From: Stenotrophomonas maltophilia
GTDB taxonomy: Bacteria; Pseudomonadota; Gammaproteobacteria; Xanthomonadales; Xanthomonadaceae
Length of the DNA stretch: 64,000 nucleotides
Assembly: GCA_002387845.1 (NCBI GenBank)
Contig: DGLB01000074.1
Location: 52,081-116,080 of the forward strand
Direction: 5' to 3'
Every line of letters starts with the position of its first letter. Position 1 is the first letter of the stretch. The position numbers and the translations under genes are program-made. The notes below the pieces were generated by a model. That model saw only the letters and a list, made by a program, of their open reading frames with translations, was not told where the DNA came from and did not search any database. Shown in pieces: positions 1,468-8,699 of this stretch.

Positions 1468-1483
1468 AACGCCTGCAATTGCA
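1468..1483. promoter_or_regulatory. Perfect 16-bp palindrome GCCTGCAATTGCAGGC immediately upstream of the candidate fap sigma-54 promoter
   Basis: Read directly from the sequence. It lies 14 nt upstream of the -24 element, a position suited to a repressor or IHF-like site. Confidence 0.3.
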
Positions 1484-1494
1484 GGCCTTCGGGA

Positions 1495-1512
1495 CTTGGC
1501 ACGAATGCTGCT
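1495..1512 (+). promoter_or_regulatory. Candidate sigma-54 (-24/-12) promoter for the fap operon
   Basis: TGGCACG-AATG-CTGCT matches the TGGCACG-N4-TTGCW consensus at 11/12 positions. The -12 GC lies about 34 nt upstream of the fapA start codon (1545), with RBS GGGAGA at 1534-1539. A sigma-54 EBP is encoded immediately downstream of the operon. Confidence 0.45.
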
Positions 1513-1544
1513 CTACCTCTCCCGCATGGTTTCGGGAGATCGCG

Positions 1545-2087
1545 ATGGACAGCGTTGCCGTACGAAGCAGAACCGCACGAAATGCCGCCTGGCTGCTGGC
1601 TCTGGCGGTGTTGCTGCCGATGGCCGCGCAGGCCTCGGGCGCACGCACCGGGGTCAAGGCGCAGCCGGGTGAGATCGTCCTGCTGCGCGATGTCTCGGCG
1701 CGGCCTGCGTACCGGCCCGCACCGCCCGGGGTCGCACTGATTGCCGACCCCTCGCCGAATCGCGAAGTGTCTGCCGCCCTGGGAACGTCTGGCGGCATGG
1801 ACGAACTGGGGGATGAAGATTTCGCCTCGATGGGGTCCAACACCGGCGCGGGCACGACGGGGCACTCGCAGACCACCGTGGAACGGGTCACCGGCGGCAC
1901 GGTCAACGCCACGCTGGGCAACATCACCGAGAACGGGGTGCTTTCCGGCAGCGGGCTGACCAAGACCATGAGCACCCCGATGAGCGCTGTTGGCAACGCC
2001 ACGCGCGGCATCGGCGATACCGTTCGCGGCGCGTTGTCGCAGTTCCCGATGGGCACCGGCCAGCCTGCAGGTGGGCCCGGCAAATGA
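1545..2087 (+). CDS. fapA: Secreted protein at the fapA position of the Fap amyloid operon (signal peptide; weak curlin-like GN(A/I)T motifs)
   Basis: ATG at 1545 preceded by GGGAGA. Signal peptide AWLLALAVLLPMAAQASG. The stop overlaps the fapB start (ATGA at 2084-2087). The assignment is positional: the sequence is not clearly FapA-like and carries NATLGNITENG / VGNATRGIG motifs resembling FapB/C repeats. Confidence 0.45.
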   Translation: MDSVAVRSRTARNAAWLLALAVLLPMAAQASGARTGVKAQPGEIVLLRDVSARPAYRPAPPGVALIADPSPNREVSAALGTSGGMDELGDEDFASMGSNTGAGTTGHSQTTVERVTGGTVNATLGNITENGVLSGSGLTKTMSTPMSAVGNATRGIGDTVRGALSQFPMGTGQPAGGPGK

Positions 2088-2716
2088 ATCGCACTGTCGC
2101 CTTCCTTGTCGTGGCCGCACTGCTGCCACTGTCTGCCGCCGCGCAGCAGGCAGACGACTACGCGGCGATGTTGAGCTATCTCAACCACAGCCGCATTGAC
2201 GGCAATGCGCTGCGCAATGCCGACGGCGCGATCACCGTGAACATGGTGTCCGGCGATCTCAACCAGCAGGCCAATCTGCTGGGTATGGCCAGCGGCGAAA
2301 CATCGGCCATCAACATCAGCGCGCGGCAGCGCCTGGCGGGCAACCGGGTCACCGGTTCGGGTCCGCTGGACGCCAGCGCCAGCATCGGCGGCCAGGCTCT
2401 GAACGGAGCCACCGGCGTTGCCATGATCAATCAGGCCAGCGGCATCGGCAACGCGACGGTCAACGTCGTGACAGCCACGCTGGCGCAACAGGGCATACGC
2501 GAGTCCGACGACGAGGCCCTCGCGGCTTCGGGGGCACTTGCGTCAGCAGGGGGGCAGGACCTCGCCAACAGCCGCAAAGCGGCTGGTACCCGCAGCGTCG
2601 CCGTGGAGGACACGGCATTGCGGGGCTTTGACGGCGTGCTGCAACTCAATCAGATCGCGGGTTCTGGCAACGCCACCGCCAACCAGCTTGGCATCTCCGT
2701 GCAGTCCACCCCGTGA
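2084..2716 (+). CDS. fapB: FapB-like amyloid nucleator subunit (secreted; curlin/Fap repeats)
   Basis: Signal peptide MNRTVAFLVVAALLPLSAAAQQ. Repeats INISARQ..GN, INQASGIGNATVNVVTA, QIAGSGNATANQLGIS fit the Fap/curlin Q/N-G-x-G-N-x-A pattern. Size (210 aa) and position match fapB. Confidence 0.65.
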   Translation: MNRTVAFLVVAALLPLSAAAQQADDYAAMLSYLNHSRIDGNALRNADGAITVNMVSGDLNQQANLLGMASGETSAINISARQRLAGNRVTGSGPLDASASIGGQALNGATGVAMINQASGIGNATVNVVTATLAQQGIRESDDEALAASGALASAGGQDLANSRKAAGTRSVAVEDTALRGFDGVLQLNQIAGSGNATANQLGISVQSTP

Positions 2717-2760
2717 GTTGTTTCACCCACCCGATAGTCCGTGATGAGAGAGAGGGCACC

Positions 2761-4197
2761 ATGAATACCACGATGAAAAGGACCGTACTGGCGCTGGCCG
2801 TCGCCGTTGCTTCTGCGTCGGTAGCCGCAAACCCCCGCCACAATGGACCGGATATCGATACCCGTATCGATACCCATATCGACACTGACATCCATACCGA
2901 TATCGACACCAACATCGATACCGATATCGATACCGACATCGATACCAAGATCCGCAACGAATGGGATTCGCGGACCAAGATCCGCAACACCAGCACCACC
3001 AACACCAGCAGCAACACCAGCACCGACACCCGCACCGTGAACCATTCGCGGCAGGTAACGGTGAACGAGAACGTACAGAAGAACAGCAACATCCAGGCCG
3101 ACGAGCGCAAGGAAAAGAACAACCACGGCGTCGACGTGAACCTGGAATCGGACCTGCAGGTTGGTGCTGATGTGCAGTTCCGCGGCCGTCCCACCGTGTC
3201 GGGTGACCTGGAAGTCGATTCGGCGGCCATCGCCATCATCGACAACCGCCAGTCGGTCACCAACAACCACGGTGACAACGAACTGCTCGAGAACAATTCC
3301 TCGATCAGCGAGAACGTCGCCCAGGGAGCGTCCGGCAACCTCGGCTTCAACACCGCCGCCGGTGACAACAACGCGCAGGACAATGCGGCCTCGCTGTCCG
3401 CCGCGGATGCCTCGTTCACCTTCGGCATGTCCGATGCCCAGGTCTACGTGAACCAGTACGGTGCCGGCAACCAGACCTGGAATGACGGCGTGGTCAACAA
3501 CTCCAGCATCAGCGGCAACGCCTTCCGCAACGCGACCGGCAACATCGGCGTGAACAGCGCGGCCGGCAACAACAACGAGCAGAAGAACGCGCTGGCCGCT
3601 TCGGTGTCCACCGCCCGCATGGCCACGGCGAGCATCAGCTCCAACCAGGTCTCCACGGGTAACAGCGTGTCCAACGAAGGCTACGTCAAGCGCATGCAGG
3701 ACACCACCGAAGTCACCCTGCGTGGCACGGTGCGCGGCGGTACCGCTGCCATCGGCGTCGGCGGTTATCGCGGCAGCGGCAACGCCTACCAGTCGTCCAA
3801 CTTCTATGCGGACAGCTGGGAAGGCGAGCGTCACACCGGTGGCGATTCGACCGGGCATATCGACTATGACAACCAGTCGCAGGGTGCGGTGCAGAACCCG
3901 AACCGTCCGGGCGTCGGCGGTCTGGGCTTCGACACCGAAGAAGAAGGCGTGCTGGCCTTCGGCGAAGTCGGCTATGCCGATCTGCGCGCAAGCCTGAGCG
4001 GCACGGTGCAGACCACGCGCTGGGTGGTTGAGCGTGCGGAAAACAACGCCTCGCTGTCCGGTGATGCGTTCCGCAATGCCAGCGGCAACATCGGTGTGAA
4101 CGTCGCGGCCGGCACCGGCAACCTGCAGGCCAACAGCCTGGCACTGGCCGTGGCCCAGCCGTCCACCGGCACCCCGGGTGGCGGTGGCGGCGAGTAA
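2761..4197 (+). CDS. fapC: FapC-like major functional-amyloid subunit with an N-terminal (x-I-D-T)n tandem repeat and a T/N/S-rich linker
   Basis: RBS GAGAGAGGG before ATG 2761. Signal peptide MNTTMKRTVLALAVAVASASVAA. Three imperfect repeats (SISENVAQGASGNLGFNTAAGDNNAQDNAASLSAADAS; SISGNAFRNATGNIGVNSAAGNNNEQKNALAAS; SLSGDAFRNASGNIGVNVAAGTGNLQANSLALAV) match the known FapC R1-R3 motif GN(I/V)GVNVAAGxxNQQxN. Ends in a Gly-rich tail. Confidence 0.75.
   Translation: MNTTMKRTVLALAVAVASASVAANPRHNGPDIDTRIDTHIDTDIHTDIDTNIDTDIDTDIDTKIRNEWDSRTKIRNTSTTNTSSNTSTDTRTVNHSRQVTVNENVQKNSNIQADERKEKNNHGVDVNLESDLQVGADVQFRGRPTVSGDLEVDSAAIAIIDNRQSVTNNHGDNELLENNSSISENVAQGASGNLGFNTAAGDNNAQDNAASLSAADASFTFGMSDAQVYVNQYGAGNQTWNDGVVNNSSISGNAFRNATGNIGVNSAAGNNNEQKNALAASVSTARMATASISSNQVSTGNSVSNEGYVKRMQDTTEVTLRGTVRGGTAAIGVGGYRGSGNAYQSSNFYADSWEGERHTGGDSTGHIDYDNQSQGAVQNPNRPGVGGLGFDTEEEGVLAFGEVGYADLRASLSGTVQTTRWVVERAENNASLSGDAFRNASGNIGVNVAAGTGNLQANSLALAVAQPSTGTPGGGGGE
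2851..2958 (+). repeat. In-frame 12-bp tandem repeat (about 9 units; gatatcgatacc family) encoding DIDT/RIDT/HIDT/DIHT/NIDT/KIRN inside fapC
   Basis: Eight to nine consecutive 12-nt units read directly: gatatcgatacc cgtatcgatacc catatcgacact gacatccatacc gatatcgacacc aacatcgatacc gatatcgatacc gacatcgatacc aagatccgcaac. Confidence 0.85.
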
Positions 4198-4334
4198 GCC
4201 TGTCCGTTTTCGCAAGCAACACGCGTTGAGCGCAACAAACCCGGTCATCCGCCAATGGCCGGGCTCCCCGGGAGCCCCTGTTCCATCCTCCCCCTTTGGG
4301 GCAGGGGCTCCTTCCTTTTCCTGGAGCCACGCCG

Positions 4335-5030
4335 ATGTCGTTCTGCCGTCTGCTCTGCGCGGTACTGCTGTTGCTGCCGATTGCTCGCCTGCATGCGGGT
4401 GACGTCGCCTTCAGTGGAGTACTGCCCAATGGCGCCCTGTTTAACCAGCAGGTGGAAAGCATGCAGGAGCGGAAATTCCGCAACCTGGTGCGGCAGCACA
4501 CCGACTACAGCTGCGGCGCGGCCGCCCTGGCCACCATCCTGCGTTACGCCTACAACCTGGAGGCGAACGAGGCCACCGTGATCGAGGGCATGATGGGGGT
4601 CTCCGACCCGGAGCTGGTGCATCAGCGCGGTTTCTCGTTGCTGGACATCAAGCGCTATGTCGAATCGCTGGGCATGCGGGGACGTGGCTACCGCGTCAAC
4701 GAAGAGCGCCTGCGTTCGCTGCGGGTGCCGGGCCTGGTCCTGATGGATGTGCGCGGTTTCCGCCACTTCGTCGTGCTCAAGCAGGTCCGTGGCGATGTGG
4801 TGGACCTGGCCGATCCGATTCTGGGCAACCGCAGCATCACGCTTGACGAATTTCTGCAGTCATGGCCGTCCCGCGCCGTGTTCATCGTGATCGGTAGCGA
4901 TTTCAATCGCAACACGGTGTTGCTGCAGCCTGGCGAACGCCCCAGTGCGCGTTCGCTGTACGCCCGGCAGGGGCCGATCACCGAAGCGGAACTGGTGGAT
5001 TTCGGCTTTACCCACGCCGACCTGCTTTAG
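4335..5030 (+). CDS. fapD: FapD-like C39-family cysteine peptidase (periplasmic, signal peptide)
   Basis: C39 peptidase core YSCGAAALATILRYAY (catalytic Cys), with H in RHFVVLK. 231 aa with an N-terminal signal peptide, matching Pseudomonas FapD in size and operon position. Confidence 0.8.
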   Translation: MSFCRLLCAVLLLLPIARLHAGDVAFSGVLPNGALFNQQVESMQERKFRNLVRQHTDYSCGAAALATILRYAYNLEANEATVIEGMMGVSDPELVHQRGFSLLDIKRYVESLGMRGRGYRVNEERLRSLRVPGLVLMDVRGFRHFVVLKQVRGDVVDLADPILGNRSITLDEFLQSWPSRAVFIVIGSDFNRNTVLLQPGERPSARSLYARQGPITEAELVDFGFTHADLL

Positions 5031-5038
5031 GAGGCATC

Positions 5039-5824
5039 ATGAACATCACCCCATGGACGCGAAGTGCGGTATTGCTGGCCCTGCTGGGCATGCTACCGGC
5101 CTACGCCGCCGACGCCCCGGCCACAGACGGGCAACGCAAGGCGGGCAAGGGACTGAGCGAGATTCCCGATCCCGAGCTGAACCTGATGCGCGGCCGTTAC
5201 ACCGTGAATGGCAACAGCGTGGCCTGGTTCGGCGTCACCATGATTTCGCAGTGGCAGGCCGGCACACAGGCCGCCGAAAGTGCGCTCACACTCGGCATGG
5301 ACTTCACCCACAGCGCGACGGCACCGAAAGTCAGCTTCACCCCCAGTGTCACCGTGACCGCGGCCGATGCGCCGCTGCCGGCCACACCGGGCCGCAGCGT
5401 GGAATCGGCCGGGCTGCAGAACGTGGCCGGTGTGACCCAAGCCATCCAGGTGGCCGGCGACAACAACGTGGCCAGCAACAGCACCCAGCTCACCGTGCGT
5501 GAGGGCAGTGCGCCGACCGGGCAGGCCACGTCCGCCGCGCCTGCGGCGACGGCACAGCACGGCGGCGTCAGCGCCGTGGCACAGATGGAGGGCAACAACG
5601 CCCAGGTGCAGCTGCAGATCGAAGGCGTCGGTGCGGTCCAGCAATGGATCCGCAACGGCAGCGTCGGCCAGACCATCGCGCTGAGCAGCGACGGCCAGGC
5701 GGTCAGCAACCGCATGCAGATCGAACTGGTGCGGCAGACCCTGGCAAGCAATGCGCCGTTGAGCCAGAACGTGGCGCAGGCCATGAACTTGGTGCGCGGC
5801 ATTGGCATGGGACCCGGTCAGTAA
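5039..5824 (+). CDS. fapE: FapE-like secreted Fap accessory/minor fibre protein
   Basis: Strong RBS AGGAGG 6 nt before the ATG. Signal peptide MNITPWTRSAVLLALLGMLPAYA. 261 aa, located between the C39 peptidase and the FapF-like barrel as in fap operons. Confidence 0.6.
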   Translation: MNITPWTRSAVLLALLGMLPAYAADAPATDGQRKAGKGLSEIPDPELNLMRGRYTVNGNSVAWFGVTMISQWQAGTQAAESALTLGMDFTHSATAPKVSFTPSVTVTAADAPLPATPGRSVESAGLQNVAGVTQAIQVAGDNNVASNSTQLTVREGSAPTGQATSAAPAATAQHGGVSAVAQMEGNNAQVQLQIEGVGAVQQWIRNGSVGQTIALSSDGQAVSNRMQIELVRQTLASNAPLSQNVAQAMNLVRGIGMGPGQ

Positions 5825-5866
5825 CCGGCCGGGTGGGGGGCGTCACCACAACCGTGGAACAAGGCA

Positions 5867-7165
5867 ATGCACACTTACCGCATGACTCCGCTGGCGCTGG
5901 CGGCGCTGGCGCTGATCCTCTCTGCCGGTGCACAGGCGCAGACCGCACCGGCCGATGAGGCCGACATCAAGGCGTTGGCCCAGCAGCTGGAAACACTGAA
6001 GGCCAACTACGCACAGGAAGTACGCCGCCTGCGCGAACTGGACATGCAGGTGCAGGCCATGCAGGCGCGCCTGTCCGGCAAGACCGGTCCGGCCACCGGT
6101 GCGGCCGCACCACCGCCGCCGGCCGTTGCGGCGGCGACCGCGCCGCCCAGCGGCGAAGGATATGCCAGCACGGCTGCCGAAGCGCAGCAGGCCCAACAGG
6201 CGTCCAAGCGCAGCGTGGACGACGTGAAGCAGCAGACCGCCACCTTGTTCACGCGTCGCTTCACGCTGGAAAACAGCCTGAGCTACGCACGCTATGACCG
6301 CAAGCAGGTGACGTTGAACGGCTTCCTGGCGTTGGACGCCATTTTCCTCGGCAACATCGCCATCGAAAACGTCGAATCGGACACGTTGACCTACAACCTG
6401 GCCGCGCGCTGGGGCGTGACGCCTCGCATGACGCTGAACCTGGACGTGCCGTATCTGGCGCGCAAGACGGTGTTCCAGAAGGGCGGTGCCGGTGGTTCGG
6501 CTGCGGCCATTGCACAGGAAGAAACGACCGGCAACGGGCTGGGTGACATCAGCCTGAGCGGCAACTTCCGTTTGAACCAGGAGAAAGGGCGCTGGCCGGA
6601 AACCGTGCTCAACGTCGGTGTGACCGCGCCGACCGGGCAGGAGCCTTACGGCGTGGACTGGAAAGTACTGGAGCGCGACGAGGACGACTTCATCCGTTTC
6701 GCCGTGCCGGGCGACCAGCCCACCGGCAACGGCGTGTGGCAGGCCAGCCTGGGCCTGTCGGCAGTGAAAACGGCGGATCCGGCGATCCTGTTCGCCAACG
6801 TCGGCTACATCCATTCCTTCGAACGCAGTTTCGACGACCTGGATGGCAATCCGGACACGGTGAACCCGGGTGACGTGAAGCTGGGCGGCTCGATCTACTT
6901 CGGTGCCGGCGTGGCGTTCGCGTTCAACGAGCGCACCAGCCTCAGCATGTCCTTCAGCGACAAGCTCAGCAGCCGCGCTTCCACCCGGTACAAGGGCGGG
7001 CAATGGGTCAAAGTGATCGGCAGTGACGCCAATGCAGCCACGCTGAATCTGGGCATCACCTACGCGCTCAACCGCAACACCACGCTGGTGAGTCAGCTGG
7101 GGATCGGGCTGACGCCGGATGCGCCGGACTTCACGCTTGCCTTCAGAATTCCGTACATGCTCTGA
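5867..7165 (+). CDS. fapF: FapF-like outer-membrane amyloid secretion channel (N-terminal coiled coil + Ala/Pro linker + beta-barrel)
   Basis: Signal peptide. Heptad coiled coil DIKALAQQLETLKANYAQEVRRLRELDMQVQAMQARL. Linker PATGAAAPPPPAVAAATAPP. Alternating-hydrophobic beta-strands ending in an aromatic C-terminus (RIPYML). 432 aa, matching FapF architecture. Confidence 0.75.
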   Translation: MHTYRMTPLALAALALILSAGAQAQTAPADEADIKALAQQLETLKANYAQEVRRLRELDMQVQAMQARLSGKTGPATGAAAPPPPAVAAATAPPSGEGYASTAAEAQQAQQASKRSVDDVKQQTATLFTRRFTLENSLSYARYDRKQVTLNGFLALDAIFLGNIAIENVESDTLTYNLAARWGVTPRMTLNLDVPYLARKTVFQKGGAGGSAAAIAQEETTGNGLGDISLSGNFRLNQEKGRWPETVLNVGVTAPTGQEPYGVDWKVLERDEDDFIRFAVPGDQPTGNGVWQASLGLSAVKTADPAILFANVGYIHSFERSFDDLDGNPDTVNPGDVKLGGSIYFGAGVAFAFNERTSLSMSFSDKLSSRASTRYKGGQWVKVIGSDANAATLNLGITYALNRNTTLVSQLGIGLTPDAPDFTLAFRIPYML

Positions 7166-7361: not shown

Positions 7362-8699
7362 TCAGCGCAGTTCGGGCAGGGCGAGCTGGTGTTTGCGGCA
7401 GAGGCGGTAGACGGTGACCCGCGAGACCTGCATGGTGCGGGCGCAGGCGGTGATGTTGAAGTCGTTCTGGCGCAGCGCACGCAGCAGGGCATCGCGCTCG
7501 GCGGCCTGGCGTGCGTCATGCAGCAGGCGCTGCGGCACCTCGATGCCTTCCGGCTCTAGTTCCAGGTCGGCCACCGTGATCAGTTCCGCTTCGCTCACGA
7601 TGGCCGCGCGCTGCACGCGGTTCAGCAGTTCACGTACGTTGCCCGGCCAGCGGAACTGCTGCATCGCCTGCAGCGCCTCGCCGCTGAAACCCCGCGCACG
7701 GGTGACGTGGCGCTGGCGGAAGCTGGCCAGGAAGTGCTCGGCCAGCAGGATGATGTCGCTTCCACGGTCGCGCAGCGCCGGCAACGGCAGGCGCAGCACG
7801 TTCAAACGGTAGAACAGGTCGCGGCGGAACTGTCCGCGTTCCACCGCCTGTTCCAGGTCCACGTGCGTGGCCGCGATCACCCGTACGTCCACCGCCAGCG
7901 GCTGGTTGCTGCCCACCCGCTCGATGGTGCCTTCCTGCAGTACCCGCAGCAGATTGGTCTGCGCGTCCAGTGGCAGGTCGCCGATCTCGTCCAGGAACAC
8001 CGTGCCGCCGCTCGCCGTTTCAAACAGACCCAGCCGGCGACTGGCGGCACCCGTGAAGGCACCACGCTCGTGGCCGAACAGTTCCGATTGCACCAGCGCC
8101 GCCGGGATCGCCCCGCAGTTCACCGCCAGGAAGGGGCGCGCATGCCGGGACGACAGCGCGTGCAGCGCGTGCGCCGCCAGCTCCTTGCCCGTTCCGGTTT
8201 CGCCGGTGACCAGCACCGGCAGTTCCACCGGCGCAAACTTGCGCAGTGCGGCGCGGGTGACCTGCAGCGCCGGACTTTCGCCGATCAGGGCCTGCGCGCC
8301 TGAGGGCGGCTGCAGATGTTGTTCAGCGCCCAGTTCCTGCAGCCGCTGCACCAGGCGGGAAACGTCCAGCGGTGCGCTGAAGGTTTCCGTGCAGCAGGCC
8401 AGCAGGGGCTGCCACTGCGGATGCACCGCCGCCGCACCCGGTGGCAGGATCGCCAGCACGCGCAGGTGGCGGTGCTGGTCCAGCACCGCCTGCAGATGGG
8501 GCAGGTGAGGGGGAGCCACGCTGCGCAGGTCCAGCAGCCCGACCACCAGGTCGTTGCCGCGCATGCCGATCGCCACGGCACCATCGGTCGCCACACCGCG
8601 CACCCGCCAGCCTGCGGCCGCCAGGGCCGTGCGCTCTGCTGCCAGGGGTTGCCCAAACCAGATCACACACCGGGCTGGAATTTCAGGGACTGCCGCCAT
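7362..8699 (-). CDS. Sigma-54-dependent Fis-family transcriptional activator (enhancer-binding protein) with an atypical N-terminal domain
   Basis: AAA+ sigma-54 interaction domain (VLVTGETGTGKELAAHALH, GAFTGA, sensor RDLFYRLNVLRLPLPALRDR) and C-terminal Fis-type HTH (NITACARTMQVSRVTVYRLCRKHQL). RBS GAAGG before the start. Confidence 0.85.
   Translation of the reverse strand: MAAVPEIPARCVIWFGQPLAAERTALAAAGWRVRGVATDGAVAIGMRGNDLVVGLLDLRSVAPPHLPHLQAVLDQHRHLRVLAILPPGAAAVHPQWQPLLACCTETFSAPLDVSRLVQRLQELGAEQHLQPPSGAQALIGESPALQVTRAALRKFAPVELPVLVTGETGTGKELAAHALHALSSRHARPFLAVNCGAIPAALVQSELFGHERGAFTGAASRRLGLFETASGGTVFLDEIGDLPLDAQTNLLRVLQEGTIERVGSNQPLAVDVRVIAATHVDLEQAVERGQFRRDLFYRLNVLRLPLPALRDRGSDIILLAEHFLASFRQRHVTRARGFSGEALQAMQQFRWPGNVRELLNRVQRAAIVSEAELITVADLELEPEGIEVPQRLLHDARQAAERDALLRALRQNDFNITACARTMQVSRVTVYRLCRKHQLALPELR

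Follow-up and report, generated by a model that had tools for sequence, protein, structure and literature searches.

A variable-number tandem repeat within a lineage-specific N-terminal extension of the Stenotrophomonas amyloid subunit FapC

What is a run of near-identical 12-nucleotide (12-nt) units doing inside the gene for the major subunit of a functional-amyloid fibre? The question is raised by a 64,000-nucleotide stretch of Stenotrophomonas maltophilia DNA (assembly GCA_002387845.1, contig DGLB01000074.1, positions 52,081 to 116,080 of the forward strand; hereafter the window), in which a homologue of fapC (2761..4197, plus strand), encoding the 478-amino-acid (aa) major subunit of the Fap fibre, carries such an array close to its 5' end. 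An earlier annotation made from the DNA letters (the original prediction) had proposed that this array is prone to vary in copy number, that it might thereby mediate phase or antigenic variation, and that it might form a metal-binding beta ladder. We find that the array is an in-frame variable-number tandem repeat (VNTR), a 12-nt minisatellite whose units keep the reading frame and whose number differs between strains. As to its role, we favour, with a probability of roughly 0.6, the reading that the array is a VNTR in a lineage-specific, low-complexity extension of FapC, and a slippage-prone appendage of the disordered coat of the fibre.

The array consists of eight in-frame 12-nt units (2851..2946, plus strand), defined by Tandem Repeats Finder (TRF) and by listing the units, which encode DIDT RIDT HIDT DIHT DIDT NIDT DIDT DIDT. 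A degenerate ninth unit, AAGATCCGCAAC (2947..2958, plus strand; KIRN), agrees with the consensus at roughly 7 of its 12 bases; it reads NIRN in almost all relatives and ends the array in every array-bearing homologue. Written out, positions 2851-2958 are GATATCGATACC CGTATCGATACC CATATCGACACT GACATCCATACC GATATCGACACC AACATCGATACC GATATCGATACC GACATCGATACC AAGATCCGCAAC, that is, head-to-tail members of the GATATCGATACC family in the frame of fapC (open reading frame, ORF, from the ATG at 2761). The nine-unit translation given in the original prediction, from DIDT to KIRN, agrees exactly with this frame; its description of nine near-identical units holds for the existence of the repeat, but only eight of them are near-identical.

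TRF assigns 2851-2946 a period of 12 with 8.0 copies, 77% matches, no indels and a score of 115 (129 at period 24), and a separate repeat search returned the same 12-nt register. At the protein level there is a run of eight x-[IV]-x-T tetrads, and shuffling the residues of the N-terminal extension 20,000 times never produced a run of four or more. Thus, the tetrad periodicity is not a by-product of composition, and chance is excluded. The guanine-plus-cytosine (GC) content of the array is 46%, compared with 66% for the window, and GAT accounts for 8 of its 12 Asp codons but for 25 of 96 in the rest of fapC and in adjacent genes (Fisher p=0.007). Both the low GC content and the GAT-rich Asp codons fit descent from a common DNA unit. 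The encoded peptide is strongly acidic here, with a net charge of -11 over 32 residues.

The protein that carries this array is a clear FapC homologue. It matches the NCBIfam model NF058558 (AmldFbnFapC) over aa 145-464 (E=2.6e-50), with a score of 172 bits that falls below the equivalog cut-off of 195 and so places it outside the Pseudomonas-centred equivalog, and it matches the FapC chains 9u4u and 9nqd in the PDB, which are from solved Pseudomonas fibrils, with E about 4e-17. Three GN[LI]G[FV]N...AAG..N.Q.N motifs, at aa 192, 260 and 442, align to the repeats of the solved FapC of Pseudomonas UK4. More than 100 homologues were retrieved from Stenotrophomonas. Relatives of the protein carry the precomputed Pfam family PF27129, and a Pfam scan of the FapC protein itself matched no family. 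The gene is placed between fapB and the C39 peptidase gene fapD. Together with the complete fapABCDEF operon around it, the NCBIfam and PDB matches bear out the FapC-like identity that had been proposed.

The array does not lie in the part of the protein that is shared with Pseudomonas. Residue 38 of full-length UK4 FapC (mature residue 14) aligns to residue 153 of the query, and the match to the FapC hidden Markov model (HMM) begins at aa 145; since UK4 residue 38 pairs with query residue 153, mature Stenotrophomonas FapC has about 116 extra N-terminal residues. Judged by where the HMM and PDB alignments start, this N-terminal extension of the mature protein spans aa 24-144 (2830..3192, plus strand). 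The original prediction had noted that the repeat is not a feature of Pseudomonas FapC; from the HMM and UK4 alignments, the entire extension of about 120 residues is absent there as well. A probable Sec signal peptide, MNTTMKRTVLALAVAVASASVAA (2761..2829, plus strand), precedes the extension, with cleavage after VAA or after ASA at aa 19. This assignment comes from inspection of the sequence: read by eye, the putative signal peptide, MNTTMKR-TVLALAVAVASASVAA, has a basic n-region, a hydrophobic core and small residues at -1 and -3. The array starts seven residues past the likely cleavage site, which falls between ...ASASVAA and NPRHNGP, and it lies outside this putative signal peptide. The extension as a whole sits after that peptide and before the three-repeat amyloid core.

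Downstream of the array, the extension contains further distinct segments. A conserved post-array segment, T-KIRN-EWDSR-T-KIRN (2944..2988, plus strand), appears in relatives as [NK]IRN[DE]WDSRT[KR][IV]RN. It includes an exact 15-nt direct repeat, ACCAAGATCCGCAAC, at 2944-2958 and 2974-2988 (30 nt apart), which encodes TKIRN twice; in relatives the two copies have diverged to NIRN ... RVRN. Only then comes a Thr/Ser/Asn-rich tract, TSTTNTSSNTSTDTRT (2989..3036, plus strand), of weak 6/9/12-nt periodicity (TRF scores 32-59), whose length differs among clades (alignment columns 117-157). The original prediction had this tract following the array directly, but ten residues, EWDSRTKIRN (2959-2988), intervene. 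At the border of the hypervariable extension and the FapC core lies a conserved charged motif, NIQADERKEKNNHGVDVNLE (FapC aa 110-129; 3088..3147, plus strand), in which, among 38 Stenotrophomonas FapC sequences, 14 of the 20 positions never vary and a further 4 reach 90% conservation or more. NIQADERKEKNNHGVDVNLE is a candidate recognition, processing or secretion signal, and an equivalent has not been described for Pseudomonas FapC.

Comparison between close relatives established that the number of units varies. The query protein is P0121 in the public collection, and the full-length members of its 90% cluster have 8, 9 or 10 units; for example, P0132 (10 units) and P0134 (8 units) are 97.6% identical across the downstream 416 residues. 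The changes fall mainly in the 3' part of the array, which is its most homogeneous; in this clade they involve only units 7-9, each of which departs from its neighbour by 1-2 bases in 12. The sister cluster, comprising S. rhizophila and S. bentonitica, is more striking in that arrays of 41, 43, 45 or 51 residues occur in proteins that are 100% identical over about 405 residues downstream of the NIRNDWDSRT motif, the differences being whole TN or xIDT units. Isolate genomes are represented among these pairs (P0146 vs P0149, and P0151 vs P0155), and a metagenome scan for the sister clade recovered seven loci, all repeating known variants. A metagenome scan for the query-clade array by its exact flanks gave no matches. 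Because identical downstream sequences carry different arrays, units are gained and lost much faster than amino acids are replaced elsewhere in the protein. The copy-number variation anticipated in the original prediction is thus real, taking the form of whole-unit differences among close relatives, and the comparison across genomes that it had suggested shows that the number is not invariant.

To place the extension in a wider context, we used a comparative set of 120 homologues and 80 FapC loci from GTDB species representatives, the latter from Stenotrophomonas, Xanthomonas chitinilytica, Luteimonas and one other member of the Lysobacteraceae. The extension is present in all 80 Lysobacteraceae loci; it is hypervariable in length and follows a strict period of two residues throughout, with Thr or Ile/Val/Leu at one position and Asn/Asp at the next. 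The common layout runs from the signal peptide, in most cases through a short conserved segment, QDNQN.SA.INH.HNV.ETRT, to a hypervariable alternating tract, and then through a second, Thr/Asn/Ser-rich variable tract to NIQADERKEKNNHGVDVNLE and the conserved core. S. maltophilia, S. indicatrix and S. lactitubi have a short, degenerate hypervariable tract; in S. terrae, S. nitritireducens, S. panacihumi and their relatives it consists mainly of (TN)n. The (D/N)-(I/V/L)-(D/N)-T tetrads, 5 to 11 units long, are found in only one Stenotrophomonas subclade, made up of the query's clade (L001-L007) and the S. rhizophila/S. bentonitica/S. aracearum group (L008-L020).

Among 174 units taken from 22 distinct arrays, position 1 of the tetrad is N/D in 152, position 2 is I/V/L in 170 (substitutions there being limited to I/V/L/A) and position 3 is D/N in 158, while position 4 is Thr in every unit, partly by construction of the extraction rule. 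The codons beneath this pattern have diverged (ATC, GTx, CTx) and the pattern has been retained; its persistence despite codon divergence argues for protein-level constraint on the binary alternation of polar and beta-branched residues. The acidic character is not conserved in the same way, with Asn at about half of those positions in the sister lineages and neutral (TN)n in more distant relatives. Beyond these loci, a HMMER search of aa 24-144 against 1.84 billion representatives found only FapC fragments and unrelated x-I-x-T-like low-complexity repeats in proteins of diverse kinds, and no family. A synthetic (DIDT)12 gave a single match, probably a spurious 82-aa ORF, in a 5.8-billion-protein collection; a low-complexity query of 48 aa falls short of significance in so large a database, and the search therefore had little power.

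Two observations on these loci may be recorded separately. In most Stenotrophomonas FapC proteins (L008-L080; L009, aa 24-45, is one case) the mature chain begins with QDNQN.SA.INH[ILNV]HNV.ETRT, in which INH[ILNV]HNV places H-x-H on alternate positions; the query's clade has NPRHNGP in place of this opening segment of about 25 residues. Such alternation of His with aliphatic neighbours is reminiscent of amyloid peptides that bind metal. In addition, L042 (JBJNRH010000003.1, titled Nocardiopsis yanglingensis) and L070 (JAHREJ010000021.1, Bacillus subtilis) carry a Stenotrophomonas-type fapC on large contigs, and these assemblies are probably contaminated or mislabelled.

How, then, might the array behave in the protein? 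Two AlphaFold2 runs, both with alignments of Stenotrophomonas sequences only, were made for full-length FapC (38 sequences; mean predicted local distance difference test, pLDDT, 44.8) and for aa 24-180 (17 sequences; mean pLDDT 49.3). Neither gave any secondary structure in the array, where pLDDT was 27-45, as it was across aa 1-158, and the sole element within the extension was a 5-residue helix just after the array, in the second run only. Both mean values are too low for a fold search. The charge-hydropathy relation also puts the array on the disordered side, with a mean hydropathy of 0.41 against a boundary of 0.54 and a net charge of 0.34 per residue. In Pseudomonas FapC fibrils solved by cryo-electron microscopy (cryo-EM), the disordered termini and linkers form a fuzzy coat, with the N-terminal region emerging from the core once in every three layers (PMC12459412, PMC12392863). 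As the Pseudomonas N-terminus joins the fuzzy coat, the Stenotrophomonas extension would probably coat the fibre surface as an extended and hydrated brush, one that in this clade is strongly acidic. On the reading that we favour, units would be gained and lost through replication slippage or unequal recombination between nearly identical adjacent units, and the length of the array would drift, or be selected, through that slippage. The extension would be retained on the secreted subunit, and the length and charge of the brush would tune the fibre surface, including solubility before assembly, spacing, and the binding of cations or matrix.

Several points weigh against this reading. Pairs within the query's clade that are at least 97.8% identical downstream share their unit number, suggesting that the array is fairly stable there. 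Furthermore, units 1-6 are orthologous unit for unit at the DNA level across the species of the clade, with shared quirks such as the ACT Thr codon in unit 3 and the DIHT of unit 4. Some of the length variants come from short metagenome or Logan contigs. Both AlphaFold2 models are of low confidence throughout, and beta structure that forms between molecules or depends on cations lies beyond the reach of a monomer model. That the mature Stenotrophomonas fibre keeps the extension is assumed, by analogy with Pseudomonas. Finally, the hydrophobic moment of the array at 180 degrees is 2.71, compared with a mean of 0.48 for the core, an extreme beta-type amphipathic pattern, and the maintenance of the alternation through divergence at the DNA level points to selection beyond that expected of a featureless spacer.

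That last observation also speaks for the beta ladder of the original prediction, taken here as an amphipathic beta-strand element that responds to cations or pH. One face of the strand would consist of Ile and Thr and the other of Asp, Asn and His, and neutralisation of the acidic face by Ca2+, other metals or low pH would allow strands to stack along the fibre or to zip fibres together. The two-residue alternation is perfect over 32-44 residues and survives substitution within the limits seen at position 2 of the tetrad (the Thr at position 4 being required by the extraction rule), His is found inside or beside the array, with the H-x-H motif INH[ILNV]HNV opening the extension in most relatives, and linker regions of Pseudomonas FapC can form fibrils themselves (PMC12822426). 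Nevertheless, we consider the beta ladder unlikely. Neither AlphaFold2 run produced secondary structure and the charge-hydropathy relation places the array among disordered sequences; the acidic face is replaced by Asn or by neutral (TN)n in other lineages; the unit number ranges from 5 to 11, not the fixed length that a defined fold would need; and the library-wide search gave only unrelated low-complexity tetrad repeats and no family of known structure. A more elaborate version, in which tetrads and nearby His form a cation- or pH-gated beta module that keeps FapC soluble in the periplasm through charge repulsion and, once loaded with Ca2+ or another metal outside the cell, zips onto the fibre or bridges fibres and matrix polymers, is a long shot. 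If it were true, the unit number of a strain would set the surface chemistry and mechanics of its fibres, as a tunable 'length dial' on a functional amyloid. An RTX-type Ca2+-binding beta-roll (the GGxGxDxUx nonapeptide) was also considered and rejected, the array having no Gly, a period of four residues and no Pfam match. A different fate for the extension would be that of a pro-region acting in the periplasm, whether to keep the subunit soluble, to prevent aggregation or to target it to FapF, and cut before or during secretion by, for example, the C39 peptidase FapD; the repeat would then never reach the fibre and its variation would be nearly neutral. The conserved charged NIQADERKEKNNHGVDVNLE does lie exactly at the border of extension and core, hypervariability is what relaxed constraint would produce, the substrate of FapD has not been established experimentally, and no targeting sequence of FapC is known (PMC6173800). 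However, the extension lacks a Gly-Gly site of the kind cut by canonical C39 peptidases, its alternating pattern is selectively maintained, and work on Pseudomonas has detected peptides from the FapC N-terminus and regards FapE and FapF, rather than FapC, as the likely targets of FapD (PMC6173800, PMC12822426). On balance, we doubt that the extension is removed in this way.

It is highly improbable that the array is a contingency locus in which slipped-strand mispairing rapidly switches the fibre on and off, although close relatives do differ in copy number. A 12-nt unit is a multiple of three, and its gain or loss therefore never shifts the frame, altering length and not expression; the TN units of relatives are 6 nt, and every variant observed is in frame. 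There is no long perfect tract, inter-unit matches being 77%, and units 1-6 remain distinguishable and orthologously kept across species. Identical full-length proteins recur on many contigs (18 and 16, for example, for two sister-clade proteins), and single-stranded array DNA folds no better than its shuffles (z = -1.39). The suggestion of phase variation does not survive these features: in-frame 12-nt units that are imperfect, the first six of them conserved across species. Antigenic variation through the array is possible. As for the DNA itself, the array contains overlapping palindromes, GATATC and ATCGAT, and 80-90% inverted repeats, but a hairpin or cruciform as the driver of instability was rejected, since the fold energy is ordinary, with 16 of 200 shuffles as good.

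The remainder of the locus is a fapABCDEF operon (1479..7165, plus strand) in canonical order, with each gene recognized by its NCBIfam model: fapA (1479-2087, with a likely true start at 1545), fapB (2084-2716), fapC, fapD (4296-5030; a C39 peptidase, also matching Pfam Peptidase_C39), fapE (5039-5824) and fapF (5867-7165), all on the plus strand. The matches to all six models are below the equivalog cut-offs, with E from 9e-8 to 1e-114. Two minus-strand ORFs overlapping fapC, 2646-3428 (260 aa) and 2650-4248 (532 aa), were judged to be shadow ORFs of a GC-rich gene because it is the plus frame that bears the FapC homology. Within FapC, AlphaFold2 gives a beta-rich core at low confidence. Linker L2, between repeats 2 and 3 (3600-4030; FapC aa ~283-425), has many invariant Gly, Asp, His and Trp residues in Stenotrophomonas, and AlphaFold2, again at low confidence, places a pair of very long beta strands in it (aa 308-342 and 390-424); L2 could be an insert with a fold of its own, not a disordered linker. 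Upstream, a sigma-54 -24/-12-like element, TGGCACGAATGCTGCT (1497-1512, plus strand), has one mismatch to TGGCAC-N5-TTGCW and lies about 33 nt before the probable true start of fapA (ATG 1545, MDSVAVRS...), and a sigma-54 activator with a VpsR-type N-terminal domain (7362-8699, minus strand) adjoins the operon downstream. The number of sigma-54-like sites in the window as a whole is not above chance. The arrangement suggests that the fap operon is under sigma-54 control.

Fap amyloids are biofilm scaffolds and candidate biomaterials, and the published work centres on Pseudomonas FapC, with variability assigned to the linkers. The fap operons of Stenotrophomonas were catalogued by Dueholm et al. 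in 2013, with variability discussed only for linkers (PMC3792158), and within the searchable literature on Stenotrophomonas FapC, Fap cryo-EM and tetrapeptide repeats, the N-terminal repeat is not described. In the Lysobacteraceae branch, to which the opportunist S. maltophilia and the plant-associated S. rhizophila belong, FapC has an extra N-terminal low-complexity module whose repeat number differs between otherwise identical alleles. Display of this module on the fibre would provide a natural experiment in the tuning of amyloid surface properties by a disordered coat, a possible strain-typing marker and a tolerated insertion site for engineering. Should the extension instead be removed by cleavage, it would represent the first Fap-subunit pro-region on record. 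In either case, this is a modest addition and not a new kind of system.

Both in-frame variable repeats in surface proteins and hypervariable disordered segments in FapC are already known; the Lysobacteraceae FapC extension, its tetrapeptide VNTR and the strain-level length polymorphism appear to be undescribed in the searchable literature. Slippage between repeats is the mutational mechanism that the array would share with the contingency loci of Neisseria and Haemophilus. However, those loci are perfect tracts with units of 1-7 nt that are not multiples of three (or are promoter-borne) and that switch expression, whereas the units of the array are 12 nt long, imperfect, and change length only. 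In the staphylococcal Clf/Sdr proteins, the SD unit is a dipeptide, encoded by 6-nt units within 18-nt DNA repeats. These too are short, in-frame acidic repeats of strain-variable copy number in a secreted surface protein (PMC3324548), and they are thought to serve as an extended spacer; unlike the array, they are C-terminal, beside the cell-wall anchor, they show no homology to it and they do not alternate with hydrophobic residues. The circumsporozoite protein of Plasmodium (NANP/NVDP, NAAG/NDAG) is similar in its 12-nt units, its Asn/Asp-rich tetrapeptides and its copy-number polymorphism between isolates (PMC6048912, PMC9611680), but it is eukaryotic, unrelated in sequence and an immunodominant antigen, and its repeats are turn-forming rather than beta-patterned because Pro or Gly is present.

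The closest system is Pseudomonas FapC itself (9u4u, 9nqd), with the same fapABCDEF operon, the same three imperfect repeats of the GNxGxNxAAGxxNxQxN type and significant similarity over those repeats. The parts of Pseudomonas FapC outside the repeats are likewise disordered and hypervariable in length, and form a fuzzy coat (PMC3792158, PMC12459412, PMC12392863). The FapC of Pseudomonas UK4 has two cysteines, C237 and C240, near its C-terminus (bioRxiv 10.1101/2023.03.14.530334), whereas the protein described here has no Cys, ends in PSTG..GGGGE and, at 172 bits, falls short of the 195-bit cut-off. About 13 mature residues precede the aligned region in Pseudomonas, compared with about 129 here, and the variability described for Pseudomonas FapC is in linker L2, whereas in this lineage it is carried by an N-terminal tandem repeat.

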